This document shows positions 1,570-15,528 of a DNA stretch of 64,000 nucleotides, piece after piece. The DNA comes from Gammaproteobacteria bacterium. Its GTDB lineage: Bacteria > Pseudomonadota > Gammaproteobacteria > Steroidobacterales > JABDKV01. Position numbers and translations under genes: made by a program. The DNA is taken from assembly GCA_029862165.1 (NCBI GenBank), contig JAOTXU010000017.1:2914-66913 (forward strand), given 5' to 3'. The notes under the pieces are model-generated. The model was given only the letters and a program-made list of their open reading frames with translations, had not been told where the DNA came from and searched no databases. The stretch's first letter is position 1. The number at the start of each line of letters is the position of its first letter.

Positions 1570-2418
1570 GTGATTCGTTATCCCGAAATCGACAACGTCG
1601 TATTCAGTCTGGGCCCGCTGGATATCCATTGGTATGGAATAATGTACGTGTTTGGTTTCATTACGGCGTTCCTGCTATTACGTCATCGTGCGAACAAACC
1701 CGATTCCGGATGGGATCACGCGGCGGCCGAAGACCTGGTCTTTTACGGCATGTTGGGTTTGTTTCTAGGGGCCCGTATTTTTTACATGTTTGTGTATGGT
1801 TTGGATCAGCTAAAGGCTAATCCACTCAACATGTTTATGATCAAGCAAGGTGGCATGTCCTTCCACGGCGGTTTGATCGGCGTGATGTTAGCGATGTTGT
1901 GGTATGGCCGTCGTCATGAGCGCAGTTTTTTTGAAGTGACCGATTTTCTCGTACCGGCTATTCCGCCCGGGTTGTTTTTTGGGCGCATCGGGAATTTTAT
2001 CAACGGTGAATTGTGGGGTAAGCCAACCGATGTGCCGTGGGCTTTTTTCTATGACGGCACAGCGCGGCCGGACGTGGCACAGGTATTCGCCGATGGCCAG
2101 GCCCGTCATCCCTCGCAGCTCTACGAGGCCGGTCTCGAGGGGCTGGTCCTGTTCCTTATACTATGGGTGTATTCGAGCCGTCCCCGGCCGACCATGGCGG
2201 TGTCCGGTATCTTCTTGTTTTTATACGGACTTTTTCGGTTTCTCGTCGAATTTGTCCGGGTTCCGGACAGCCACATGGGCGAGGGCGGCTATCTGGCCTT
2301 TGGCTGGCTGACGACAGGCCAGATACTGACCGCACCCATGGTGCTACTCGGCCTGATTCTGATTATTCTGGCTTACACACGCGGTGACACCGTGAGACCT
2401 GAAAAGGCAACGCAATGA
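1570..2418 (+). CDS. lgt: Prolipoprotein diacylglyceryl transferase
   Basis: GTG start, 282 aa. Lgt signatures are present: [33 protein letters not shown] and HPSQLYE. It is a polytopic membrane protein, and its stop overlaps the thyA start (ATGA). Confidence 0.93.
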
Positions 2419-3209
2419 AACAGTATTTGGAAATGATGCAACACGTGCTGGATAGCGGTGTGAAAAAAACCGACCGAACCGGTACGGGCACACTAAGTGT
2501 TTTCGGTTATCAGATGCGATTCGATTTGCAACAGGGCTTTCCTCTGGTAACCACAAAGAAATTACATCTGCGTTCGATCATTCACGAGTTGTTGTGGTTT
2601 TTGCGTGGTGACACCAACATCGGTTATCTAAATCAGAACGGTGTGCGCATCTGGAATGAATGGGCCGATGGGGATGGCGAGCTGGGACCGGTTTATGGTG
2701 CGCAATGGCGATCCTGGCCGGCGGCAAACGGTGAATGCATTGACCAGATTGATCGCGTCGTGACCCAGATTCGAACGCAGCCGGATTCGCGCCGCATGAT
2801 TGTGAGCGCCTGGAATGTATCCGATCTCGATAGCATGGCATTGCCACCGTGTCATATGCTATTTCAGTTCTATGTGGCCGACGGGCTTTTGTCTTGTCAG
2901 TTGTATCAACGCAGTGCCGATGTTTTTCTTGGTGTTCCCTTCAACATCGCATCTTATGCACTGCTGACTCATATGCTGGCACAACAGTGCGACCTTGAGC
3001 CCGGTGAATTCATCTGGACCGGTGGAGATTGTCATTTGTACAGCAATCACATGGAACAGACCTTGCAGCAGTTGTCACGTGAGCCTTATCCACCGCCCAA
3101 ACTGGTCATAGCACGTCGCCCGGACAGTATTTTCGACTATCGCTACGAAGATTTCCTAATCGAAAACTATCAGTCGCATGCCGGAATCAAGGCCGCCGTC
3201 GCGGTCTGA
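2415..3209 (+). CDS. thyA: Thymidylate synthase (ThyA type)
   Basis: 264 aa, with [38 protein letters not shown], the active-site PPCH and [23 protein letters not shown]. Confidence 0.97.
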
Positions 3210-3235
3210 AGCAGGTCGAAGCGATTTCTATTTCC

Positions 3236-3709
3236 TTGATCGTCGCCATGACGCCGGAGCGGGTGATCGGCCGCGACGGGAAGATGCCGTGGCATTTGTC
3301 GGCAGATCTCAAACATTTCAAGGCGACCACGATGGGCAAACCCATTGTCATGGGTCGCAAAACTTATGATTCTATCGGCAGACCATTGCCCGGCAGACAC
3401 AATATCGTCATTACACGCAACCAGGACTTTTCTGCCGAGGGTGTGACAGCCGCGAATTCCCTGGACGACGCATTGCTCAACGCCGGAGATGTGCCGGAGA
3501 TAATGATTATCGGTGGTGCCCGACTCTATGAGTCAGCTCTACCGATGGCGCAACGCCTTTACGTCACACAAGTACTTGCCAGGATTCCCGGCGATACTTT
3601 TTTCCCGCAAGTGGACTGGACCCGGTGGCGCATCGTCCGGCGATCTGCGACCCAGTCAGACGACGGCTTAAGTTTCTATTTTTCAGTTTACGAAAAACGC
3701 GCGTCGTAA
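3236..3709 (+). CDS. folA: Dihydrofolate reductase
   Basis: DHFR motifs are present: VIGRDGKMPW, LKHFKATTMGKPIVMGRKTYDSIG, PLPGRHNIVITR and IIGGARLYE. The start is uncertain. TTG at 3236 comes from the ORF track, and the in-frame upstream codons (..AISIS) also resemble the DHFR N-terminus. Confidence 0.9.
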   Translation: MIVAMTPERVIGRDGKMPWHLSADLKHFKATTMGKPIVMGRKTYDSIGRPLPGRHNIVITRNQDFSAEGVTAANSLDDALLNAGDVPEIMIIGGARLYESALPMAQRLYVTQVLARIPGDTFFPQVDWTRWRIVRRSATQSDDGLSFYFSVYEKRAS

Positions 3710-3763: not shown

Positions 3764-5128
3764 CTAGTCTTCCGAATCAGCCGTGGCAGATTGCTCTTGC
3801 TTGGCGGATGCTTCGGCCGCCTGTAACCGGCCCGTCAACAGTTTGACAAATTGATCACCGGGCAGCGGCCCGGTCGTGGTACCCCTGCCTTCGTGAATAA
3901 TGACAAACGTCGGGGCCCTCGTGATCAAGCCTTGCGCGTCGTAAAGATCTTTGACGACACGCTCGAGTCCTTGACGGCTCTCGAAACAGCCGCGAAATTT
4001 TTGCATGTCGAGTTCGAGGTCTTCGGCCAACGCAAGCAATGCAGCATCGGCATTCTCATTAGCCCATTGTTCGGAATCGGCATGCAGCCGGCCGTGCATC
4101 TGCCAGTATTGCTGCTGATCACCGGCGCATTCAGCGGCCACGGCCGCAACGAGCGCATGCTCGTGTACCCGTAGCGGTAATTGCTTGTCGACCCACAGCA
4201 CTTTGCCCGGGTCGACGAGTTCCTTGTCGATAACGGGTTGCGCTTCGAGCGTATGCTTCTGGCAGGCCGGGCACTGAAAGTCATTGAACTCGACGACCAC
4301 CACCTGTGCTTCGGGGTTGCCCTTGTATGCGTCGCCGGCCATCGTGAAGCCGGGCCGTTCGGGATCGGGGGCGAGACCCTCGGCTTTGGCCCACAGCGGC
4401 AGCTCGGGCGGCGCGGGCTTTGGATCCTCGGGCGGTGCTTCGCCGGCAATCAGCGCATCGGCATAACGCGCAAATCGCGCCAACGGATGCGCACCGCTCA
4501 TTTCGTAAGTTTTGTCGCTGCCGGTTGAGAGAAAGCGAAAACTGGGTGTGCCGTTGTAGCCAAGACCGCGACCCTCTTCGACGCTGGCCGTTACTTGTGC
4601 CGCTATGGAGCCCTCGGCAATGCAGGCTTTGTATTTCTGCATATCGGCGCCGAATTCTTCCGCCACGCCAGCCAGAAAATCACTTGGATCGGGCAGCCGG
4701 TTCCACTCGCCCTGTCGAGCAAACAAGGCATCGTGCATTTTCCAGTACGCCGCGGCGCCCTGCTGGCCGACACAGTTCGTGGCGACGTGCCCAACGGCCG
4801 CAGTCGGATGCAGGCCCTCAAGCGGCAGGTCACGGAACACGAGCTTGAGCTGGCCGGTGCGCACATACTGATCGAGCAACGCCGGCACTGTCTGACGGAA
4901 ATGCCGGCCGCAGAACGGGCATAGATAATCGCTCCACTCCTCCAGCGTGACCGGCGCATCCACCTTGCCGATAAACGGGTGGCCCGCATCCGTGAAACCG
5001 ACAGGCATGTCGTCGTGGGTTGCCGACTGTGCCGTCGTGTCTTGCGCGGTGATGTCCTGTGCGCACGCAATTAGCACAATCAGCATCATCACAGACAATA
5101 CACTGTCTTTTAATAGATAAATCTTCAT
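3764..5128 (-). CDS. Lipoprotein with two tandem DsbA-like thioredoxin-fold domains
   Basis: The signal peptide ends in a lipobox (VLIAC). Two DsbA-type modules follow, each with its own CxxC (..DYLCPFCGRH.. and ..DFQCPACQKH..) and a conserved GTPSF / APTF cis-Pro loop region. Confidence 0.75.
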   Translation of the reverse strand: MKIYLLKDSVLSVMMLIVLIACAQDITAQDTTAQSATHDDMPVGFTDAGHPFIGKVDAPVTLEEWSDYLCPFCGRHFRQTVPALLDQYVRTGQLKLVFRDLPLEGLHPTAAVGHVATNCVGQQGAAAYWKMHDALFARQGEWNRLPDPSDFLAGVAEEFGADMQKYKACIAEGSIAAQVTASVEEGRGLGYNGTPSFRFLSTGSDKTYEMSGAHPLARFARYADALIAGEAPPEDPKPAPPELPLWAKAEGLAPDPERPGFTMAGDAYKGNPEAQVVVVEFNDFQCPACQKHTLEAQPVIDKELVDPGKVLWVDKQLPLRVHEHALVAAVAAECAGDQQQYWQMHGRLHADSEQWANENADAALLALAEDLELDMQKFRGCFESRQGLERVVKDLYDAQGLITRAPTFVIIHEGRGTTTGPLPGDQFVKLLTGRLQAAEASAKQEQSATADSED

Positions 5129-5180
5129 AAACTTACGCCATCAAATCCCTGCAAGCACAATACGGTCTGCTTGCCGCAAA

Positions 5181-5213
5181 GAAAAGGGGCCGGGATTTCC
5201 CCGGCCCCTGTGG
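5181..5213 (-). terminator. Rho-independent terminator after the 5286..7538 gene
   Basis: A 9-bp GC stem (GGGGCCGGG 5186-5194 pairing with CCCGGCCCC 5200-5208) has the loop ATTTC. On the minus strand it is followed by TTTTCTTTG. Confidence 0.7.
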
Positions 5214-5285
5214 TTTTAACCCGGCAGCTTGCTACTCATGCCTCCTTGCGAGCGAAAACTGCCGCGCCTGGACTTTCCGCCGAGG

Positions 5286-7538
5286 CTACTCGATCGTCAC
5301 CGTCGCGTCGTCGGACGGATCCGGAGAAACCGGTGTCGTCTCATCGTCCTCAAGCTGGCCCGTCACGGTGTCCGTCACTGTTGCCGTGCCGTCCGGACTG
5401 TCGATCACCGCATCGAACGAGCAGGAAACTGAGTCGCCATTGCTAGCCGGGATGACTGTGTCCAATTCGTCACACGTATTATTGGAAATGTTGGGGTTGT
5501 TCGAGTCTAACAAGTCCCCATAGGGCGTGTCAGTGAGGCTGATCAACGTCAATGGATCCGTATCGACCGAAAGGTTGTCAATAGTCACCCGGTAACTAAC
5601 GACTGCCTTCGTCACGATCTTCGTCACTGCTGCCGCTGGGTCGACGTTGTTGAAGTTGACAGCCGCGACGTCCATTGCGCTTACGGGCACATTGTCATCG
5701 TCCACACCGGAGGCGGTTCCGGTATTGTCAATCATGTCACCCACGTTCCCTTCCACAGGCACCGTCACCGAACAGCTATACATGCCGCCGGGGGCCAACA
5801 CTACGGGGGGCGTGACTACGTCGCAGTCACCCTGACCCTGCAGATCCATTAGCACGTCGTCGGTCAAGCTGTCGATAGTCACCGTATCCACCGTAGAGGT
5901 GTTGGTGACCTTGTACGTGTAGGTAACGTTGCCACGTGGTTCATTAACACAACCTGGACCGTCGACGCTGCCCATATCATCGCACAGCGGTGTTACCGTC
6001 TTCAATAACGTGATCATCGACGGCACGTCCACCACGGTGATAAGTGCGGTGTCCATGACGGGGCCTACACTAATTCCGTCATCGTCCACACCGGAGGCGG
6101 TTCCCTCATTGGGAATCGTATCACCCGCGTTGCCAGTCAAAGCCACCGTCACGGAGCAGCTATACATGCCGCCAGCTGCCAACTCTACGGCCGGGGTTAC
6201 GTCACAGTCACCCTGACCATCCAGATCGAGGAGCTGGTCATCGGTCAAGCTGTCGATGAACACCGTATCCACGTCAGAGGTGTTAGTGACCTTGTACGTA
6301 TAGGTAACGTCGCCACCCGGTTCCAGAATTTCAGTCGGGTTTCCCGTGCAGTTCAGCGCGTCTGAGCAAGCGGCCGTCTTCATAATCGAAATCGACGACG
6401 GATCATTGAGAATGTCCACCGTAGCAGGATCGGATCCCGTTACAGTCCTACCCTCAGAATCGGTCCCGGAGACATTGACCGTATCGGTGATACTGTCTAG
6501 GTAATTCCCCGAAATGGCCCGTATGAACGTGCACGTCGTAAACTCGCCCGGGCCCAATAACAAATCCGGATCATCACAGGTTGACGATATATCTGTGACT
6601 ATCATCCCGTCACTCAATTCGTCGTCAAGAATGGAATCTAGTTGGACGTCAGCGAACGGCGATGGATTTGTGATTGTCACAGTAAACGTCGCGTCGCCAC
6701 CCGGCTCAACCAAACAACCTGGGCCGTCAACATCTCCCGCAGGATCGCACAGCGGTGTAACCGTCTTGAGCACGTCCAGCTGAGTGACTGGCACCTCGAT
6801 AGGCAGGGTGAAGCCTATGTCGCAACGGCACTTCGACGGTGATCCCGGAAAGGCATCGAGCGGGCTCGTGCAAAGCTCGTTTGCGCCAAACTGCCGCCAA
6901 CTCGTGCAGTTCGGCAGATTCAACAGGCCGTCACCATCCGGATCGATGCATTTTGTTGTCAATGTGATCGTTGGATTCAGCGGATTATGACCGGGCTTAT
7001 CGATGTCGCCGCAAGTGTCCTGAATCAGGCCATTCGGATCGTCATCCTTGCCATCAAGATCCAACCACGGTTGGTCCGGTGTGAAAGGCATCACCGTGAT
7101 AGCACATTGCCCGGTAAGGGCGCCGTCCATGTTGGGATCGCCATCGACCGCCCAGTAGATCCCAACGTCGTGCCGCCGTTTGGCGGTGGTTATAACGTCG
7201 AATGTCGCGATGAATGTCACGGTATCACCCGGAAAGGCGCAGCCACCGTCTGGGTCCAGGATCTCGATGTCAGGCACGCCCGGCATCCCGTCTTTGTCGG
7301 CAACGCCGGCAACCTGGATGTCATTGGCGTTACAATTAAGGTCCCCAGGAAATATGTCATCCATACACCCATTGATACAGGTAGCTGGGTCGGTTGGGTC
7401 TCCTGCACACATCGATTGCGCGTTCGCGGTTGGCACCGCTATTAACATAATAACGGGCAGCAGCACCGCGAAAATCACAGCCTGCCCGAGAGAGCGCAGC
7501 GCAACTTGTTGAATTGTAACTCGTTTAGTTGTTATCAT
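5286..7538 (-). CDS. Secreted Cys-rich protein with four tandem ~125-aa beta-sandwich-type repeats (DUF11 / conserved-repeat-domain-like)
   Basis: 750 aa. An N-terminal signal peptide (..VPTANA|QS) is followed by a ~210-aa Cys/Asp-rich region with DxDGD-like motifs. Then come four repeats, each carrying VTYTYKVTNTS / IDSLTDD / GQGDCDV / GGMYSCSVTV / GTASGVDDD-type strings. I did not recognise a C-terminal anchor. Confidence 0.6.
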   Translation of the reverse strand: MITTKRVTIQQVALRSLGQAVIFAVLLPVIMLIAVPTANAQSMCAGDPTDPATCINGCMDDIFPGDLNCNANDIQVAGVADKDGMPGVPDIEILDPDGGCAFPGDTVTFIATFDVITTAKRRHDVGIYWAVDGDPNMDGALTGQCAITVMPFTPDQPWLDLDGKDDDPNGLIQDTCGDIDKPGHNPLNPTITLTTKCIDPDGDGLLNLPNCTSWRQFGANELCTSPLDAFPGSPSKCRCDIGFTLPIEVPVTQLDVLKTVTPLCDPAGDVDGPGCLVEPGGDATFTVTITNPSPFADVQLDSILDDELSDGMIVTDISSTCDDPDLLLGPGEFTTCTFIRAISGNYLDSITDTVNVSGTDSEGRTVTGSDPATVDILNDPSSISIMKTAACSDALNCTGNPTEILEPGGDVTYTYKVTNTSDVDTVFIDSLTDDQLLDLDGQGDCDVTPAVELAAGGMYSCSVTVALTGNAGDTIPNEGTASGVDDDGISVGPVMDTALITVVDVPSMITLLKTVTPLCDDMGSVDGPGCVNEPRGNVTYTYKVTNTSTVDTVTIDSLTDDVLMDLQGQGDCDVVTPPVVLAPGGMYSCSVTVPVEGNVGDMIDNTGTASGVDDDNVPVSAMDVAAVNFNNVDPAAAVTKIVTKAVVSYRVTIDNLSVDTDPLTLISLTDTPYGDLLDSNNPNISNNTCDELDTVIPASNGDSVSCSFDAVIDSPDGTATVTDTVTGQLEDDETTPVSPDPSDDATVTIE
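5289..6779 (-). repeat. Intragenic tandem domain repeats; the two central units are near-identical with a 384-bp offset
   Basis: The string gtcatcgtccacaccggaggcggttcc occurs at 5694 and again at 6078, an offset of 384 bp (128 codons). Repeat boundaries fall at roughly aa 254, 379, 504 and 632. Confidence 0.8.
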
Positions 7539-7821
7539 TCCCTTCCCCCAATCAGTTCTTGTGTTAATTGATTGATATCGACGCCCCTTTTTTGAATGCC
7601 ATCTGGGATGGCAACTTATGTAAAAGAGGAGCGTTTACGCCCCAAATGTAGTTCAGGTCGACCGATTTTTCCAGCGTGAAATGACACTTTTTGGAGAGCA
7701 TGTGTTGACCCAATCCGATGTCCGGCGGAGCGAGGCTTTGGGGCGTCCAACATTAAACCCACGTCTTATGTCAAAACCCTAGACGTGTCAAAGGATTATG
7801 AAAAAGCCCGGGTTCCAAAAA

Positions 7822-7837
7822 TGTGACGTCCGTCACA
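7822..7837. promoter_or_regulatory. CRP/Vfr-type binding site with perfect half-sites: TGTGA-cgtccg-TCACA
   Basis: This is an exact match to both consensus half-sites at the canonical 6-bp spacing. It lies in the 495-bp divergent intergenic region. A -10-like TACACT at 7858-7863 would put a transcription start near 7870, about 41 bp from the site centre, which is class II geometry. Confidence 0.55.
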
Positions 7838-7875
7838 GGTCGCGAGCCTCACGGCGCTACACTGCATCATAAGAT

Positions 7876-7965
7876 CTCGCCCGATAACGGCAAACTCCGA
7901 GTGATCGGAGGACGCAAATCCACGGGTCCCAGGAAATGTGGGATGGCCGGGTTACCGAAGGTGAG
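7876..7965 (+). promoter_or_regulatory. Candidate c-di-GMP-I (GEMM-I) riboswitch aptamer in the 5' leader of the 8034..8477 gene
   Basis: The conserved GEMM-I blocks appear in the canonical order:
- GGCAAAC (7889-7895).
- Hairpin CTCCGA-GTGA-TCGGAG (7895-7910) with a GNRA loop.
- GACGCAAATCC (7911-7921).
- Second hairpin ACGGG-TCCCA-ggaaatg-TGGGA-tgg-CCG (7922-7949).
- GGGTTACCGAAGG (7949-7961).
- Closing helix CTCGCC+CGATAAC (7876-7888) pairing with GTTACCG..GGTGAG (7951-7965).
The comparison is to my memory of the V. cholerae Vc2 aptamer. No covariance model was run. Confidence 0.7.
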
Positions 7966-7998
7966 AAAGCCTGAATGCACGGGCTCGGTGTCGGGATC

Positions 7999-8028
7999 TT
8001 TCCTTGATTTAGTTTCAGGAAAAGGAAA
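7999..8028 (+). promoter_or_regulatory. Possible SD-sequestering hairpin (expression platform)
   Basis: TTTCCTT (7999-8005) is the exact complement of the Shine-Dalgarno AAGGAAA (8022-8028), which lies 5 nt upstream of the ATG at 8034. The loop is 16 nt. Confidence 0.35.
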
Positions 8029-8033
8029 CCCCT

Positions 8034-8477
8034 ATGAAGATTCGACACCTTGTTGCTTTGTGTTATCTCTTTGGCGCGACCGCGCAGGCGGAAGAAATGG
8101 ACGTCTACGTGTGGGACCCGGGCTGCAATCACACGACTGCCACCAATTGGTTCACGGTGCCAGCGTCGGAAGGGACACAATCAATCCTTGTTGACCTTAG
8201 CGGCTGCACTGAGGAACAGATCGGTAGGTTGTTGTTTTTCGGTAACTACGCAACGAAAACGAGCGGCCGGCAACTGTCGTCCAAGCATAAAGTGCGCCTG
8301 CACTTATCTGCTCTCGATAGCTTCGGCAATGTAATAACGCAAATGACGTCAGATTCCGGATCGATACTCGCCGACGTGGCGCACCTGAATTCCCCGGCCT
8401 GCTTGCTCGTGGCCGAGAATATGAATCGTAAGAAAGATGTGAAGATTCGTTTGCGCGCGCAGCTAATAGCTCCTTGA
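8034..8477 (+). CDS. Small secreted protein of unknown function (147 aa)
   Basis: It has a good SD (AAGGAAA) and a signal peptide MKIRHLVALCYLFGATAQA|EE. The mature part is ~128 aa with three Cys. I recognised no family. A strong hairpin follows the gene. Confidence 0.7.
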   Translation: MKIRHLVALCYLFGATAQAEEMDVYVWDPGCNHTTATNWFTVPASEGTQSILVDLSGCTEEQIGRLLFFGNYATKTSGRQLSSKHKVRLHLSALDSFGNVITQMTSDSGSILADVAHLNSPACLLVAENMNRKKDVKIRLRAQLIAP

Positions 8478-8488
8478 AAAGGCAATGG

Positions 8489-8515
8489 GTAGCCCGCCAC
8501 TATGTGGCGGGCTAC
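8489..8515. terminator. Strong hairpin between the convergent genes 8034..8477 (+) and kmo (-)
   Basis: A 12-bp stem (GTAGCCCGCCAC / GTGGCGGGCTAC) has a 3-nt loop. The U-tract is poor on the plus strand, and CCTTTTC follows on the minus strand. Terminator function is plausible but not certain. Confidence 0.5.
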
Positions 8516-8660: not shown

Positions 8661-10016
8661 CTACAGTTGTTCTGTTATGAGTTTTTCGGCTAACGCATAG
8701 TCAACAATATCCAGCGTTTCGCTGCTACCGAGCAGTTGTTCGAGTATTTCTTGTTGGATGCTGCCGCGTCGCTGTGCCTCGGCATAGGGCACGTGATGAA
8801 ACATGATGAGCGAATAACGTGGGACAAAAGTATCCGGGAAGCGTCGCTCCAACTCCCACGCCAGTTCTTTTTTCAGGTGAAACCGCGGGTCGCGTACGCT
8901 GTCACGCATTTCGACATAGTTCTCCAGGGCCATAGCCGCGATCGCGTCAGTGTTGGGTTTCCGGTGCGATTCAAACTCGGCAAATACCCGTTCCCACCCT
9001 CTGGGACCGGGCGTGGCCTTGTCCGCGATACAGCGATCAAGTTGAAAACAATCCTCGAACGCGCAATTCATGCCCTGGCCGTGAAACGGAACGACACTGT
9101 GCGCCGCGTCGCCCACCAATAGAAATTTTCCACCGACACGCCAGGGCTGGCAGTACACCGTTACCATCGCACCGGTTGGATTGGCGAAAAACTGTTCCGC
9201 CAGGTCTGGTATCAGTGCCAGAGCGTCGGGAAACTGTTGCTGGAAAAACTCATTGATCGCGGAAGCGGTAGACAACGATTCAAAACTGAGATCACCGGCG
9301 CGCGGCAAAAATAAAGTAACTGTAAAGCTGCCATCGAGGTTTGGCAGCGCGATCAGCATGTAGTCGCCACGTGGCCAGATGTGCAAGGCGTTCGCATCGA
9401 TTCGATGCTCGTTGTCTGCGGTGACCGGTATGCTTAGCTCCTTATATGCGTGGTCGAGATAGTCTTCCCGTGCATGATAGCCGGGCAATTTCGACATCTG
9501 CCGGCGAACGATCGAACCGGCGCCGTCTGCAGCAATGACAGGTGTCTGCTCGAGTACAAATTGACGGCCTGTGTCTTCTTCGCGGATACGTACGTCACCG
9601 GAACGCATATCTGCCGCCATGACGCGCCGTTGAAAATGAAATTCCACGCCATATTGGTGCTCGGCGGTGTTGAGCAGTAATTCATTCAAACCGCTACGGG
9701 ACACCGAATAGATGACTTCTTCGTCGTTCTTGCCGTAAGGCTGAAAACCCAGCTCGCCGGACGGGTCATGCAGCATGCGCCCGCGCATCGTAATCAGTAA
9801 CTCGCTTACCGATTTGTACAAGCCCACTTCACGCAACGCGTGTATGCCGCGGTTTGCCAGTGCGAGATTGATGGAACGCCCGGCCGGGATCTCGGTGCTG
9901 CGCAAGTCAGGGCGGCTTTCGTAGACTTCTACCGGGTAGCCGCGCCGCGCCAGGTAAATCGCCAATAACGATCCGGCGAGCCCCGCACCCAATATAACGA
10001 TGCGTTCGTTGCTCAC
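8661..10016 (-). CDS. kmo: Kynurenine 3-monooxygenase (FAD-dependent)
   Basis: 451 aa. The FAD fingerprint IVILGAGLAGSLLAIYLARRGYPVEVYE is present, as is the class A flavoprotein monooxygenase motif LVGDAAH. It sits in a kynurenine-pathway operon, and its GTG start overlaps the kynU stop (GTGA). Confidence 0.85.
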   Translation of the reverse strand: MSNERIVILGAGLAGSLLAIYLARRGYPVEVYESRPDLRSTEIPAGRSINLALANRGIHALREVGLYKSVSELLITMRGRMLHDPSGELGFQPYGKNDEEVIYSVSRSGLNELLLNTAEHQYGVEFHFQRRVMAADMRSGDVRIREEDTGRQFVLEQTPVIAADGAGSIVRRQMSKLPGYHAREDYLDHAYKELSIPVTADNEHRIDANALHIWPRGDYMLIALPNLDGSFTVTLFLPRAGDLSFESLSTASAINEFFQQQFPDALALIPDLAEQFFANPTGAMVTVYCQPWRVGGKFLLVGDAAHSVVPFHGQGMNCAFEDCFQLDRCIADKATPGPRGWERVFAEFESHRKPNTDAIAAMALENYVEMRDSVRDPRFHLKKELAWELERRFPDTFVPRYSLIMFHHVPYAEAQRRGSIQQEILEQLLGSSETLDIVDYALAEKLITEQL

Positions 10017-11281
10017 GTCGCGAGCAGCTCCTGCATGACTTCAACGAAGCGATACACTTCGGTGTAGCGGTTATACAGTGGCACCGGCGCAACACGAATT
10101 ACATCGGGTTCGCGCCAGTCGCAGATTACGCCACGGATACCGAGTCGCTTCTGCACCTCGCGCCCGAGTTCCGGCCGCCGTAGCCGCAACGACAACTGGC
10201 TGGCGCGTGCGTGCTGCGGCGTAATTATCTGGATGTGCTCATCGAGTTTCTTATCGACCAACCAAGCGAGATACGAGGTAAGTTTTGTTGATTTGTCTCG
10301 TAACGCGGGGATGCCTACGCGATCGAAAATGTCCAGCGAGGCAAGTACTGGCGCCAGTGACAGAATGGGCGGATTACTAAGCTGCCAACCCTCGGCACCC
10401 GGGATCGGAATGAATTCCGGGCCCATGCGAAAACGAGAACTCTTGTCGTGCCCCCACCAGCCGGCAAGGCGGGAGAGGCTGTCGTCCTCAGCATAACGTT
10501 TATTGATATAGCAACCGCCGATCGCGCCGGGGCCGGAATTCATGTATTTGTACGTGCACCAGGCAGCAAAATCCACATCCCAATCGTGCAATTGCAGTGG
10601 AATGTTGCCGATTGCGTGTGCCAGGTCAAAACCAACCATGCAGCCCTTGTTGTGACCCAAACGGGTAATCTCGGCCATATCCAGGACCTGGCCGCTGTAA
10701 TATTGCACACCCGGCAAAAGTATCAGGGCAATCTCATCGCCGTGTTTGTCGATCGTGTCACTAATATTTTGCTCCGCCAGGAAAAACTCGGATTCTCTTG
10801 GGGCGATTTCGATCAGGTTTTCTGCCGGATCCAGACCGTGGAATTTCAGTTGCGAAACAACAGCGTAGCGATCGGAAGGAAAGGCGGGCTTTTCGATTAG
10901 AATTTTTTTTCGTTTGCCGGACGGTCGGAAAAAACTGACCATCATCAAGTGCAGATTGACCGTAAGTGTATTCATGCACACGACTTCGATGTCTTTTGCA
11001 CCGACCAAACGGGCAGAAGCCGCTGTTGCCAGCTCGTGATAGGGCATCCATGGACGACGGCCAAAAAAATGCCCCTCTACCGCGTAACGCTGCCAGTCAT
11101 CGAGTTCCTCGTCGACATAGCGGCGTGCGCTCTTTGGCTGCAACCCCAGCGAATTGCCGGCCAGATATAACTGCGAACGGCCGCGCTTGTCCGGCGGGAT
11201 GTGGAATAGTTTGCGGTATTCGCTTAGTGGATCGAGCCGATCTTCTTCCAGGGCATAAGCCGTGTCGTCCTGAAAAGTCAT
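10013..11281 (-). CDS. kynU: Kynureninase (PLP-dependent)
   Basis: 422 aa. Kynureninase-like strings include YLAGNSLGLQPK, DFAAWCTYKYMNSGPGAIGG, the PLP-lysine region and WWGH. The ATG overlaps the upstream stop (ATGA). Confidence 0.9.
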   Translation of the reverse strand: MTFQDDTAYALEEDRLDPLSEYRKLFHIPPDKRGRSQLYLAGNSLGLQPKSARRYVDEELDDWQRYAVEGHFFGRRPWMPYHELATAASARLVGAKDIEVVCMNTLTVNLHLMMVSFFRPSGKRKKILIEKPAFPSDRYAVVSQLKFHGLDPAENLIEIAPRESEFFLAEQNISDTIDKHGDEIALILLPGVQYYSGQVLDMAEITRLGHNKGCMVGFDLAHAIGNIPLQLHDWDVDFAAWCTYKYMNSGPGAIGGCYINKRYAEDDSLSRLAGWWGHDKSSRFRMGPEFIPIPGAEGWQLSNPPILSLAPVLASLDIFDRVGIPALRDKSTKLTSYLAWLVDKKLDEHIQIITPQHARASQLSLRLRRPELGREVQKRLGIRGVICDWREPDVIRVAPVPLYNRYTEVYRFVEVMQELLAT

Positions 11282-12090
11282 GCTGCAATCCGGTACAACA
11301 GCGGCCGGCTCGGTGCGGCATCGCTGACAAACGGTGCGATCTGCAGGGCCAGCAAATGTAAGCCGTCATCGATTCGGTCCGGCACGTAAATCATCTCAGT
11401 TATCGTTGCATGGGCACGGGTGGCATCGTGTACCGACCGACTCCCGCTGGCCAGACCCCAGAATATTCGATGAGCATCCAGATGTGCATCATCGAGTCGG
11501 TCTACCGAAGGGGTGTCTACGAGCAAGTGGCGTACATTTCTCTCGACTATCCAGCGCATCGCTTCAACGCTGAAATACGGTGTTTGATCGATCGGCCATT
11601 CGCGCCGGGTTTTTTCTTTATCATTAGGTAAGGTGCGTATGATCAGCGCGTCAACGGCGCTCAGGTCAGCGTCTGTCAAGGCTTTGTGCAAAGCGTCTTG
11701 AGTGATGAGACGGTCTTTCTTGCTCGGTTTCTGCCAATCCTGTTCATGAACTTCACCGGCCGGTGCGGTTGCGATGGTTACGACTTGCGCCAGATAGAGT
11801 GCCCGCATTGCCATGTCATTGACGGCGATTCGCTCGTTGGTGATGTGTCCGATACATTCGGTATGAGTACCATTGCAGTGTGGGATCAGGTCCAGGTGTT
11901 CGGCGTTGCAACTGCCACCAAGCCGTGTATCCCCGATAAAATCGCCGGCATGCATCGGCCGCGCCGTTGCAGCGTCGGCGCCAAAAAAGCCGGGTTGCGG
12001 ACCATCGAAACGCAGCGGGATGGAAATATCGACCGGGTCACCGGTGGCCACGTATTCCCGATCACCGCTTTGCAGCACCAGACGACTCAC
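11278..12090 (-). CDS. Cyclase-family protein, candidate kynurenine formamidase with a divergent motif
   Basis: It carries HCNGTHTECIGH where the cyclase/KynB family has HxGTHxDxPxH. Its position is between ACMSD and kynU. I place the start at GTG 12090, which overlaps the ACMSD stop (GTGA). The ORF track extends the frame to TTG 12120. Confidence 0.6.
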   Translation of the reverse strand: MSRLVLQSGDREYVATGDPVDISIPLRFDGPQPGFFGADAATARPMHAGDFIGDTRLGGSCNAEHLDLIPHCNGTHTECIGHITNERIAVNDMAMRALYLAQVVTIATAPAGEVHEQDWQKPSKKDRLITQDALHKALTDADLSAVDALIIRTLPNDKEKTRREWPIDQTPYFSVEAMRWIVERNVRHLLVDTPSVDRLDDAHLDAHRIFWGLASGSRSVHDATRAHATITEMIYVPDRIDDGLHLLALQIAPFVSDAAPSRPLLYRIAA

Positions 12091-13112
12091 AGGAATTGCT
12101 CCGCTTCCAGCCCTAGCCAACGTAGTGCCGTTCCGTGTAGGAGTAACGCACGCGTGTCTTTGCTCATTGCCATCGATTCAATCATCTCGCCGGGCACGTG
12201 CTCGCCCAGCGGAAACGGATAATCACTACCCAGGGCAATATTGTCTGCGCCCATGAGCTTGATCATGTAGTTCAACACATGGGGTTCGTGTACCAGTGAA
12301 TCGACAATAAATCGCCCGAGATATTCGCGCGGATTTGTCGTGTTGTTAACGGCGACCAGGTCCGGTCGCACCTTGAACCCGTGTTCAATACGTCCGATGC
12401 TTGCCGGAAATGCTCCGCCACCGTGGGCAAAAGCGATTCGCAACTTGGGCAGTCGTTCAAATACGCCGCCAAAAATCATGGAGCAGATCGACAGTGAGGT
12501 TTCGGCTGGCATGCCCACTAGCCATGGCAGCCAGTACCTGCTCATCCGGTCCCGCCCGAGCATTTCCCACGGGTGTACAAATATTGCGGCCCCCATTTGT
12601 TCGGCCGCCTCGAAAATAGGAAAGACTTGCGGGTCGTCCAGGTTCCAGCCGTTGACGTGGGAGCCTATTTCTATGCCGGCCAGACCCAGTTCGTTCACAC
12701 AGCGCTCCATCTCACCTATTGCCATGTCCGCCGACTGCATCGGTACTGTTCCCAGGCCGACAAAACGAGTTGGATGCTCGTTAACCAGCGACGCGATATG
12801 GTCGTTTAACAAGCGTGACAGGTCCAGTGTATCTTCGGGGCGCGCCCAGTACGAAAACATGATGGGTACAGTTGATAGAACCTGGACATTGACACCGGTC
12901 TTGTCGCATTCGGTGATACGGGTATCCGGGCACCAACAGTTTGCTTCAATTTCGCGGAAAAATTTGCCGTCACTCAGTAGATTGGCGCAGCCGGGGCCCT
13001 TGTGTTCGAGCGCGACGAAACCGCCGTAACCATAGCGTTCTTTCAGATCCGGCCAATTTTCGGGCAGGACATGGGTATGGATGTCTATTTTTAGCATCCC
13101 CTGTCCGGGCAT
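12087..13112 (-). CDS. 2-amino-3-carboxymuconate-6-semialdehyde decarboxylase (amidohydrolase_2 family)
   Basis: MLKIDIHTHVLPENWPDLKERYGYGGFV closely resembles the eukaryotic and bacterial ACMSD/NbaD N-terminus, including the HxH metal site. The alternative start at ATG 13097 (MLKIDIH) fits homologues better than 13112. Confidence 0.88.
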   Translation of the reverse strand: MPGQGMLKIDIHTHVLPENWPDLKERYGYGGFVALEHKGPGCANLLSDGKFFREIEANCWCPDTRITECDKTGVNVQVLSTVPIMFSYWARPEDTLDLSRLLNDHIASLVNEHPTRFVGLGTVPMQSADMAIGEMERCVNELGLAGIEIGSHVNGWNLDDPQVFPIFEAAEQMGAAIFVHPWEMLGRDRMSRYWLPWLVGMPAETSLSICSMIFGGVFERLPKLRIAFAHGGGAFPASIGRIEHGFKVRPDLVAVNNTTNPREYLGRFIVDSLVHEPHVLNYMIKLMGADNIALGSDYPFPLGEHVPGEMIESMAMSKDTRALLLHGTALRWLGLEAEQFL

Positions 13113-13115
13113 GAT

Positions 13116-14087
13116 TCAGGCGCTCTCGGGTCGATCCATGATGTCACCACAACGTTGGCAAGTGCGGTGCTCGGTGCTGGAAAAAAAACGGTCAAAGATA
13201 GGTGGCAGTTGGCTCACGATATCAACCAGGTCGAGGTACTCCTCGTATAATTTTTCATGACAGTTCTCGCAGTACCACATGAAACCGTCTTTCTCTCCGG
13301 GCCGTCTGGTACGTTCTATTACCAGACCGATCGTATCCGCAAAGCGCTGCGGCGAATGCGGTAAACGTGGAGGCAGCAGAAAAATCTCGCCTTCTTTGAT
13401 CGGTATGTCTACGGGACGACCGTCCTGCATCGTTTTTAGCAGCATATCGCCTTCGAGCTGGTAGAAAAATTCTTCGCCTTCATCATAATGATAGTCCTTG
13501 CGGGAGTTTGGTCCACCGACCACCATGACGATGAATTCCGTGTTCAGATACACCTGCTGGTTGCAAACGGGTGGCTTGAGCAAGTGGCGGTTTTCGTCTA
13601 TCCAGGCATTGAGATTGAACGGCAACTTCAGGGCATTCATTGTGGTTCCTTTTTTCTGCGTCACGTCTGCACGATTCAACGTGGCGACGCACTTCAGTTC
13701 AATTGCAATGGGCGTTGGGAGACAAGAGACCTGCACGGTTGTTCGGCAAGGCTGATTAACGCCAAAATATTCGGCGTAGAGCCGATTGTAGACTTCGAAA
13801 TCGCGGTCGATGTCAGTCAGAAAAACCGTAACGTCGACCAGTCGGTCCCAACCGGAGCCAGATGCCTCCAGTACGCTTTTCACATTGGCGAATACCGAAT
13901 GACACTGTGCCGCCATGTCGTAGCTTGCGACGTTGCCCGCGTCATCAAGTACCACTCCAGGGATGGCTTCACCATCGACTGAGCGCGGGCCGATTCCGGA
14001 CAGGAACAGCAAGTCGCCCACTCGACGTGCATGCGGGTAGGCGCCGACTGGTGGTGGAGCCTGGGCAGTTCGAATGATGTCAGTCAT
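13116..14087 (-). CDS. In-frame fusion of a RidA/YjgF-family domain (2-aminomuconate deaminase-like) and 3-hydroxyanthranilate 3,4-dioxygenase
   Basis: - The N-terminal ~150 aa are RidA-like (MTDIIRTAQAPPPVGAYPHARRVGDLLFLSGIG..TTVQVSCLP..IELKCVA).
- The C-terminal 174 aa are a cupin HAAO (..MVVGGPNSRKDYHYDEGEEFFYQLEGDM..LLPPRLPHSPQR..) with the two CxxC pairs of the rubredoxin-like site.
- No stop codon separates the two parts.
- I chose the start at ATG 14087, which overlaps the end of the upstream gene by 8 nt. Confidence 0.8.
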   Translation of the reverse strand: MTDIIRTAQAPPPVGAYPHARRVGDLLFLSGIGPRSVDGEAIPGVVLDDAGNVASYDMAAQCHSVFANVKSVLEASGSGWDRLVDVTVFLTDIDRDFEVYNRLYAEYFGVNQPCRTTVQVSCLPTPIAIELKCVATLNRADVTQKKGTTMNALKLPFNLNAWIDENRHLLKPPVCNQQVYLNTEFIVMVVGGPNSRKDYHYDEGEEFFYQLEGDMLLKTMQDGRPVDIPIKEGEIFLLPPRLPHSPQRFADTIGLVIERTRRPGEKDGFMWYCENCHEKLYEEYLDLVDIVSQLPPIFDRFFSSTEHRTCQRCGDIMDRPESA

Positions 14088-15528
14088 ATCGCACACACAC
14101 GTTTTTGGGTTCGGTAAAAAACCGCATGGATTCAAAGCCACCCTCGCGGCCCATGCCGGATTGTTTCATACCACCCATGGGCGTACGCAGATCACGCATC
14201 ATCCATGTATTGACCCATACCAGGCCGGCCTCGATTCGTCGCGCCACTCGCAGACACCGGGTCACGTCACTGCCCCAGATTGACGCGGCCAGACCATAAG
14301 TGCTCTGGTTACTCAGTGCGATTGCTTCGTCTTCATCGTCGAAGGGCATTATCGTTACGACAGGACCAAAAATCTCTTCCTGGTTGGTGCGACACTGGGC
14401 AGGCAAACCTTCAATGACAGTGGGCGCGACAAACCAACCCTCGGCACAACGCCCCGGCAGGTTGACCGGCGTGCCCCCACACAACACTTCACCGCCTTCG
14501 TCCTGCGCGAGCTGGATACAATCCAACACTTTGTCACGGTGGGCTGCCGAGATAAGGGCGCCCTGGTCGCTACCGTTCACCAGCGGGTCGCCGACGACCA
14601 GTTGTTTGGCACGGGCGACAAAGTCTTCGCGAAAACGCTCGTAAACCTCGTTTTGCACCAGGATACGCGAACCGCACAGACAGACTTCGCCCTGGTTGGT
14701 AAAAGCCGCCCGTAGGGTCTGGTCCAGGGTGCGATCCCAGTCACAATCGGCAAAGACGACCGTCGGATTCTTGCCACCCATTTCGAGCGAGAGTTTCTTG
14801 AATCGACCCGCCGTGCTCTTGGCAATTTGTTTGCCGGTGCTGGTGCCGCCCGTGAAGGAGATAGCGGCAATTTCGGTTTGGTCGACCAGCGCCTGCCCGA
14901 CGCCGGCACCGCGTCCGTGTACGATGTTCAAGACGCCGGGCGGCACATTGGCCCGACTCAACAAACGGCTAAACAGGTAGGCCGTCATGGGTGTAAGTTC
15001 CGAGGGTTTTGCAATTACTGTGTTACCGGCAGCTAGGGCCGGGGCGATTTTCCATGACAACAGATACAACGGCAGATTCCACGGCGAGATACACGCAACG
15101 ACACCCAACGGTTCGCGTAGTGTGTAGTTGATTGCGTCCTGTCCCATCGCATGTGATTCACTTGCGAAATGCTCGGCAGCACCAGCGTAGAAACGCAGGT
15201 TTGCAGCGACACGCGGTATGTCGACCGATTCGGCAAGTCGCAGCGGCTTGCCGGTGTCGACAGATTCTGCCTGCGCAAACTCGGCAGCACGTTCTTCCAC
15301 CAGATTCGCAAGCCGGTTCAAGACACGACCGCGTTCTGCCGCCGACGTTGCGGCCCAGGGATCGAATGCGGATTGTGCAGCAGACATGGCTTTTTTCAGG
15401 TCGTCGGCAGACGAGTCCGGCGCACGTGCGTAGGCCTGTCCGGTAGCCGGTTCGAATACGTCGAGCCAGCGATCTTCAGCCGGCGCTGCCACATCACCAT
15501 CGATGTAGTTGTAGATTTTTTCCATCAC
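14080..15528 (-). CDS. 2-aminomuconate-6-semialdehyde dehydrogenase (NAD+ aldehyde dehydrogenase family)
   Basis: 482 aa. ALDH motifs are present (ELGGKNP-like LEMGGKNP, catalytic-Cys region FTNQGEVCLCGSR, EEIFGPV). The operon context with ACMSD and HAAO supports the specific assignment. Confidence 0.8.
   Translation of the reverse strand: MMEKIYNYIDGDVAAPAEDRWLDVFEPATGQAYARAPDSSADDLKKAMSAAQSAFDPWAATSAAERGRVLNRLANLVEERAAEFAQAESVDTGKPLRLAESVDIPRVAANLRFYAGAAEHFASESHAMGQDAINYTLREPLGVVACISPWNLPLYLLSWKIAPALAAGNTVIAKPSELTPMTAYLFSRLLSRANVPPGVLNIVHGRGAGVGQALVDQTEIAAISFTGGTSTGKQIAKSTAGRFKKLSLEMGGKNPTVVFADCDWDRTLDQTLRAAFTNQGEVCLCGSRILVQNEVYERFREDFVARAKQLVVGDPLVNGSDQGALISAAHRDKVLDCIQLAQDEGGEVLCGGTPVNLPGRCAEGWFVAPTVIEGLPAQCRTNQEEIFGPVVTIMPFDDEDEAIALSNQSTYGLAASIWGSDVTRCLRVARRIEAGLVWVNTWMMRDLRTPMGGMKQSGMGREGGFESMRFFTEPKNVCVRYD

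Follow-up and report, generated by a model that had tools for sequence, protein, structure and literature searches.

A probable c-di-GMP-I class riboswitch ahead of a gene for a small secreted protein in uncultured Gammaproteobacteria

We analysed a 64,000-nt stretch of DNA (hereafter the window; contig JAOTXU010000017.1 of assembly GCA_029862165.1) from a Gammaproteobacteria bacterium. On its plus strand lies an open reading frame (ORF; 8034-8477, locus tag OER80_10870) for a 147-aa protein with a signal peptide, preceded by an RNA element that resembles the riboswitches for bis-(3'-5')-cyclic dimeric guanosine monophosphate (c-di-GMP). Comparison of leaders suggests that this riboswitch is part of a larger conserved unit, 7822-8036, in which a promoter with a CRP-type operator precedes the aptamer and a platform that would sequester the Shine-Dalgarno (SD) sequence.

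The aptamer and its conservation

Scanning the whole 64 kb with cmscan (Rfam 15) at the gathering threshold (59 bits for the top model, RF03167) returned a single riboswitch match, at 7880-7960 on the plus strand (63.1 bits, E = 1.5e-12), spanning a full-length model of clan CL00126. A second member of this clan also passed its own gathering score and was masked by clan competition; it is presumably RF01051 (cut-off 35 bits), the sole plausible candidate. The aptamer lies on the strand of the gene and in its 5' leader, with 74 nt separating it from the AUG (8034); the predicted switching strands overlap helix P1 and the SD. A GEMM-I type element had been proposed at this site from the letters of the sequence (the original prediction), and those quoted for plus strand 7876-7965 match ours exactly; the call now has the support of the covariance-model score, of covariation and of orthologous leaders that conserve the element.

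All the structural elements listed in that proposal were found, namely the GCAAA junction (7890-7894), the ACGCAAA junction (7912-7918), GGGUUACC and a long closing helix. The P2 element (7890-7915, plus strand) contains a hairpin, 7895-7900 with 7905-7910, capped by a GUGA loop at 7901-7904; orthologues carry GUAA, GCAA or GUGA, and the G and A of this GNRA loop are invariant. The second hairpin, P3 (7918-7953, plus strand), has no 11-nt tetraloop receptor, which is likewise not known from other c-di-GMP-I members with loops other than GAAA. The closing helix P1 was recovered by RNAalifold as 7875-7883 paired with 7956-7966, the latter being the plus-strand 3' side of P1 and its extension (CGAAGGUGAGA), as delimited by RNAalifold and pair counting.

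The closest structural reference is Vc2, found upstream of tfoY in Vibrio cholerae and belonging to RF01051. Like Vc2, the window element has a three-helix junction with joining strands GCAAA and ACGCAAA and a P2 that ends in a GNRA loop, and it is placed in the 5' untranslated region of the regulated gene. In Vc2, the ligand is contacted by G20, A47 and C92, and C44 and G83 form a universally conserved interhelical pair (PMC4744006, PMC5888326). The corresponding contacts in the window are 7889, 7916 and 7955. The C44-G83 positions are occupied by C7913, within GACGC, and G7946, bulged ahead of CCGGG, both invariant in 18 leaders. Unlike Vc2, the window element has a P3 about 6 nt shorter and without the receptor, a GUGA loop (GUAA in most orthologues) instead of GAAA, a P1 longer by seven pairs, and a platform predicted to be a lineage-specific three-strand switch made of the 5' strand, an anti-SD and the SD.

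We fetched 25 loci (24 distinct) with homologues of the downstream gene, each identified here by an L number. In 18 loci besides the window, from metagenomes or metagenome-assembled genomes (MAGs), the aptamer directly precedes the orthologous gene, scoring 60-77 bits. The expectation that orthologous leaders would keep the motif thus held for these 18 loci but not throughout, since no aptamer was detected, even at E ≤ 1, in L002 (Woeseiaceae, 57% identity), L011/L012 (43%) and L024 (45%). Loci L022 and L025 include only 52 and 63 nt upstream of the gene, too short for the aptamer to be judged.

RNAalifold recovered P1, P2 and P3 from a structure-blind MAFFT alignment of 18 leaders. Paired cells amounted to 95.7%, as compared with at most 59.5% in slid-register controls, and 13 pairs were changed on both sides versus 5.1 ± 1.6 after shuffling, with none of 500 shuffles reaching 13. 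Pairs changed on both sides occurred in P2 (4 of 6), P3 (3 of 13) and P1 with its extension (2 of 9); the pair 7877:7964, for instance, is C-G in 13 leaders, U-A in four, including the window, and U-G in one.

The absence of the aptamer from the leaders of L002, L011/L012 and L024 implies that it can be lost, and would fit an element in the window that resembles an aptamer by chance or has decayed into a relic without function. Yet the E value of the match, the compensatory changes among leaders whose proteins are only 44-86% identical, and core nucleotides that are all invariant leave this explanation with a negligible chance of being correct. With the clan match, the covariation in P2 and P3 and the ligand-contact triplet described below, we are highly confident that 7880-7960 is an aptamer of the c-di-GMP-I class.

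Two side observations concern the leaders themselves. In those of the most divergent homologues, L024 (1-250) and L011 (3330-3545), the operator, the 5' (A)AGATC and the downstream GGATCT(TT) are kept, and an unrelated or degenerate insert of ~110 nt replaces the aptamer; L011 retains CAAGATCCTGCTCGA...GGTGCCGAAGCG. The insert could be a decayed aptamer or another sensor in its place. Separately, the public gene calls P0016 (L015 1675-2295), P0030 (L016 623-1153) and P0031 (L019 944-1450) begin inside or just past the riboswitch, and reading through the leader gives them N-terminal extensions, such as GKPRVIEGRK...MAGLPKV...SVSGSFL, that are annotation artefacts.

Binding-site nucleotides and the family label

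The original prediction pointed to RF01051 as the model to be matched. A clan score above the gathering cut-off was indeed obtained, but the best model, for the window and for most orthologues, was RF03167 (c-di-GMP-I-GGC) instead. Weinberg et al. 2017 reportedly described two orphan variants of the class, c-di-GMP-I-GGC and c-di-GMP-I-UAU (RF03167 and RF03168), whose suffixes we take, from the consensus lines of the models, to denote positions 20/47/92. That the top model is the GGC variant, with the RF01051 score of the window hidden by clan competition, counts against a canonical assignment.

We compared the nucleotides at these positions. A single conserved nucleotide, a G at the A47 position (GACGC-G-AA), sets the consensus of RF03167 apart from that of the canonical class; A stands there instead in the window (7916) and in every one of the 19 leaders. 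The window presents G7889, A7916 and C7955 at positions 20, 47 and 92, which is the canonical c-di-GMP configuration; G7889 had already been aligned with Vc2 G20 in the original prediction, and this equivalence, favouring c-di-GMP over 3'3'-cyclic GMP-AMP (cGAMP), stands. Because the GGC-defining G is absent at 7916 and the G/A/C triplet is present, we assign the element to canonical c-di-GMP-I.

The behaviour of the models within the lineage is consistent with this assignment. Locus L007, a near-identical orthologue, scored 62.4 bits on RF01051, and its alignment to that model has deletions exactly at the receptor site; the higher score of RF03167 is probably owed to the short receptor-less P3 of the lineage. 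Moreover, L019 (857-937) matched RF03168 at 77 bits despite an A/A/C triplet. Both variants share with the window the short receptor-less P3, the GNRA/GUAA loop and the CnCG...CGAAG pattern of P1, but not the triplet, which is G/A/C in the window and not G/G/C or U/A/U. Since the defining nucleotides are absent despite passing scores, the variant models evidently match the shared short-P3 scaffold and not the binding site, being near enough in that scaffold to score best on the leaders of this lineage; RF03167 and RF03168 calls within it are false-positive variant calls. An orphan GGC riboswitch sensing a ligand other than c-di-GMP would agree with the best score of the window (63.1 bits against a cut-off of 59) and of most orthologues. 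Nevertheless, with A at the A47 position in every leader, and L019 cross-matching RF03168 without U/A/U, we consider it very improbable, and membership of the GGC variant was rejected.

Other cyclic dinucleotides had to be weighed as well. Across the 19 leaders, the triplet is G/A/C in 16, including the window, A/A/C in two (L007 and L019) and G/A/U in one (L021). The altered contacts are G20A at position 390 of L007 and position 866 of L019, and C92U at position 82 of L021, the remaining aptamer core being invariant; each of these loci is a single metagenomic contig, in which a sequencing error is possible. The G20A change retargets the fold to cGAMP (PMC7288161, PMC9481103): a G20A Vc2 binds cGAMP and a G20A/C92U Vc2 binds c-di-AMP (PMC7288161), and natural c-AMP-GMP variants carry G20A (PMC9481103, PMC7266159). 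The Geobacter c-AMP-GMP (GEMM-Ib) riboswitches have the same fold, and their hallmark A at position 20 is seen in L007 and L019; the window, in contrast, has G at that position (G7889), so that we rejected its membership of GEMM-Ib, and it has no exoelectrogenesis-type gene context.

The exchanges in these three leaders lend some colour to an aptamer that answers 3'3'-cGAMP or c-di-AMP, or is promiscuous; for the window itself, however, G7889 and C7955 are in the c-di-GMP configuration, as in 16 of the 19 leaders, and such a specificity seems improbable. Judging from the binding-site nucleotides, the ligand is very probably c-di-GMP. A more speculative idea, which we consider doubtful, is that the leaders of this gene family are a natural hotspot for exchanging ligand-contact nucleotides on the GEMM-I scaffold.

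Promoter and expression platform

Upstream of the aptamer, the palindrome TGTGACGTCCGTCACA (TGTGA-N6-TCACA) at 7822-7837 has its centre at 7829.5, some 41 bp ahead of where transcription is predicted to start. The 64 kb contain no other perfect match to TGTGA-N6-TCACA, with 0.08 expected by chance. All 15 aligned leaders have identical half-sites, TGTGA and TCAC, around a central N6 that varies without complementarity. The palindrome lies 50-54 nt before AGATC in all of the 18 other aptamer-bearing loci that include the region, and persists in the aptamer-less L002 (~4880-4895) and L024 (33-47). A scan flagged it on the minus strand as a possible RNA hairpin or terminator; given the constant half-sites and the lack of complementarity among the variable inner bases, we rejected this reading in favour of a protein operator.

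A -10 box, TACACT, is predicted at 7858-7863 (plus strand; family consensus TAGACT); in the leader alignments this box follows the palindrome by 20-23 nt, and no -35 box is evident. Its pattern is TAnAnT, in which the four specified bases show no or almost no variation among 15 leaders, and the spacing to both the palindrome and AGATC is fixed. From the -10 spacing only, transcription is predicted to start at ~7869-7871, which would place the palindrome centre near -41 and fit a class II CRP-family promoter. Such promoters (centre near -41.5) share with the window a perfect half-site pair at a fitting distance from a conserved -10 box. The palindrome thus suggests that a putative CRP-family regulator acts on the small secreted-protein gene. 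No CRP-type helix-turn-helix was found among the window ORFs by a crude motif scan, a weak negative. In relatives of the Xanthomonadales, the CRP-like protein Clp is itself c-di-GMP-responsive. The work on Vc1 and gbpA (PMC4744006) has no mention of a CRP precedent.

Between promoter and start codon, all on the plus strand, we recognized the elements of a candidate three-strand switch. The 5' switching strand AAGAUCUCGCCCGA (7871-7884) can pair with 7956-7966, forming the extended P1, or with 7992-8000 plus 7985-7988. The 3' switching strand, or anti-SD, CGGGAUCUUUCC (7992-8003), can in turn pair with 7871-7879 or with the SD region (8022-8036), which comprises AAGGAAA, with GG at 8024-8025, CCC at 8030-8032 and the AUG at 8034-8036. 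Between aptamer and anti-SD, a variable spacer hairpin (7968-7988) is 91% paired, with three pairs changed on both sides; its 3' arm, CUCGG at 7984-7988 (consensus UUCGG), alternatively pairs with the P1 5' CCGA at 7881-7884 (90% paired). AGAUC (7872-7876), where the RNA is predicted to have its 5' end, is invariant, as is a GG 8 nt ahead of the AUG, and GGGAUCUUUCC (7993-8003) is invariant or nearly so in 18 leaders. The distance from aptamer to AUG is near constant (~69-75 nt).

Both alternative states are represented by conserved helices. The extended P1 has seven further pairs and 95.7% of its cells are paired; the competing helix, 7871-7879 with CGGGAUCUU (7992-8000) plus UCGG (7985-7988), is 96.9% paired with 6 of 9 pairs invariant, and is formed in the single-sequence minimum free energy structure of the window. 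The anti-SD pairing joins 7999-8003 to GGAAA (8024-8028) and 7993-7995 to CCC (8030-8032), in two helices that are 98% and 93% paired; in L014, UCUUUCC has become UCUCUCC along with a change of GGAAAG to GGAGAG. In constrained folding, the mean unpaired probability of the SD was 0.13 with aptamer and P1 forced versus 0.51 with the competing helix forced, with the same direction in 18 of 18 leaders, and the ligand-free fold was favoured by a mean of 4.1 kcal/mol over the 18 leaders, a modelled gap that nanomolar ligand binding could pay.

A transcription-terminator platform was rejected, with no terminator-like site on the plus strand between the aptamer (7960) and the AUG (8034). Because forcing the aptamer lowers SD accessibility, both helices are conserved and the leader has no plus-strand terminator, we favour a translational OFF switch; control probably acts on translation through SD sequestration, and for the direction, OFF, the thermodynamic modelling gives us moderate confidence. 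Vc2 also represses translation.

In the proposed mechanism, a CRP-family activator bound at 7822-7837 would be needed for transcription from ~7870. In the ligand-free RNA, the 5' strand AAGAUCUCG (7871-7879) would pair with 7992-8000, tying up the anti-SD, so that the SD (8024-8028) would be accessible and the protein made. With c-di-GMP bound in the three-helix junction (G7889, A7916, C7955), the 5' strand would be held in P1 and its extension (7875-7883 with 7956-7966), leaving the anti-SD (7993-8003) free to pair with GGAAA...CCC (8024-8032), which would occlude the ribosome-binding site and turn translation OFF. Production of the protein would thus call for both an active CRP-family activator and a low level of c-di-GMP.

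Several points weigh against this mechanism. The competing helix is nearly invariant and so has essentially no covariation support, and its conservation could come in part from promoter-proximal or SD constraints. For the window itself, modelled SD accessibility shifts only a little (0.45 versus 0.56), since a second copy of GGAA (8018-8021) provides a decoy for pairing. Nearest-neighbour folding leaves out tertiary structure and kinetics, both co-transcriptional and those of the ligand, which are very slow in this class. Some conserved GEMM-I elements, such as Bc1, do not respond to c-di-GMP in vivo (PMC11218506). Lastly, the use of c-di-GMP by the organism is assumed, as we saw no gene for a c-di-GMP enzyme in the window. 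The earlier remark that no GGDEF or EAL gene is nearby agreed with a crude motif scan of all window ORFs of at least 120 aa, and crude scans for GGDEF, EAL, HD-GYP and PilZ found none of them in the window ORFs, although these are weak negatives.

The same aptamer and ligand could have another output, be it an ON switch or control of transcription, Rho-dependent termination or mRNA stability. Both polarities are known for c-di-GMP-I riboswitches, and the closest functional parallel, Vc1 of V. cholerae, is a GEMM-I element with conserved contacts that lies before gbpA, likewise a gammaproteobacterial gene for a secreted binding/colonisation protein, and activates its expression in response to c-di-GMP (PMC4744006). 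In the window, besides the small modelled SD effect, a pyrimidine-rich run (UCUUUCCUU) comes after the long-range helix. Nonetheless, the forced aptamer lowers SD accessibility in 18 of 18 leaders, anti-SD and SD keep their complementarity across leaders and change jointly in L014, and the interval 7960-8034 has no terminator-like site on the plus strand; we regard another output as unlikely. The OFF direction favoured for the window differs from the ON switch of Vc1, and the regulated proteins are unrelated. Taken jointly, a canonical c-di-GMP-I riboswitch, a CRP-family promoter, a translational OFF switch and a monocistronic gene make up the account that we hold to be somewhat better than an even bet.

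The regulated gene, its neighbours and significance

The gene downstream of the aptamer had been described as an orphan, which did not hold: we found 34 homologues in uncultured Gammaproteobacteria/Woeseiaceae (45-100% identity, none with a Pfam domain), in synteny with genes for DUF7507 and DsbA-like proteins. Only three homologues are named, all as hypothetical proteins; two of these belong to MAGs of uncultured "Gammaproteobacteria bacterium". The 147-aa protein itself had no match in Pfam or NCBIfam. It contains two invariant cysteines, C31 and C58, and AlphaFold2 confidently predicted an all-beta jelly-roll sandwich (predicted local distance difference test score 86.3; predicted template modelling (TM) score 0.78). 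Foldseek searches of the Protein Data Bank with this model retrieved only generic lectin, carbohydrate-binding module or jelly-roll matches (TM-score ≤ 0.48); an extracellular binding module is a reasonable guess from the predicted fold.

Twelve nucleotides past the stop codon, a perfect 12-bp GC-rich hairpin (GTAGCCCGCCAC tat GTGGCGGGCTAC; 8489-8515, plus strand) without a U-run likely marks the end of a monocistronic transcript, and in L013, L018, L020 and L022 the stop codon likewise has a similar GC-rich hairpin behind it. Because hairpins follow its stop codon, the small gene is probably the only one controlled by the riboswitch.

In most loci (the window was compared with L001, L002, L004, L013 and L014), the small gene, a DUF7507 gene (~750 aa) and a DsbA-like gene are collinear on one strand in that order. 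In the window, the latter pair (3764-7538, minus strand) is inverted and divergent to the small gene. It encodes a 750-aa secreted DUF7507-repeat protein (5286-7538, minus strand; Pfam PF24346, E = 1.9e-08, and synteny) and a 454-aa double thioredoxin/DsbA-like protein (3764-5128, minus strand; Thioredoxin_4, E = 6e-47, and DSBA; NCBIfam NF041057, 238 bits). The DUF7507 gene of the window is thus outside riboswitch control, and operon-wide control of the DUF7507 and DsbA genes was judged unlikely, given the hairpins after the stop codon of the small gene and the opposite orientation of the two genes in the window. We also rejected a second riboswitch or conserved leader ahead of the DUF7507 gene: a comparison of window minus strand 7530-7830 with seven spacers between small gene and DUF7507 gene gave 39% identity and no conserved block, and Rfam returned no match.

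Other features of the neighbourhood were noted. The DUF7507 leader contains a terminator-like hairpin with a T-rich tail (GGGGCGTAAACGCTCC TCTTTTACAT; 7628-7643, minus strand) ~90 nt before the start codon, for which we saw no conservation in other loci. Convergent with the small gene, a run of genes at 8661-14141 (minus strand) resembles a cluster of the kynurenine/NAD de novo pathway, with a kynurenine 3-monooxygenase-type FAD monooxygenase followed by kynureninase-like, cyclase/formamidase-like, ACMSD-like amidohydrolase and 3-hydroxyanthranilate dioxygenase-like products; these identities were read by eye from the translations, with Pfam applied to the first gene only. On the other side, thyA-like and folA-like ORFs (2415-3709, plus strand; also read by eye) adjoin the DsbA-like gene.

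The element adds to the long-known c-di-GMP-I class, with an expression platform that is lineage-specific. For annotation, the fact that RF03167 and RF03168 exceed their gathering scores in leaders without the defining nucleotides means that variant calls need a check of the binding-site positions. If true orphan variants precede homologues of this gene, its fixed context and platform would be available for working out their ligands. The three-strand platform is simple enough for direct testing, and the natural G20A and C92U orthologues are ready-made specificity variants. The combination of a CRP-type operator and a c-di-GMP riboswitch on one small gene is of modest extra interest; should the leaders prove to be a hotspot for contact exchange, one small secreted protein would answer to different cyclic dinucleotides in different species, with a CRP-type (cAMP) input besides. 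For uncultured, sediment-type Gammaproteobacteria/Woeseiaceae, our analysis assigns a c-di-GMP input, and probably a CRP-type one too, to the neighbourhood of a previously unannotated gene trio, whose small beta-sandwich, DUF7507 surface-type and DsbA-like proteins would thereby be tied to the switch between motile and attached lifestyles.

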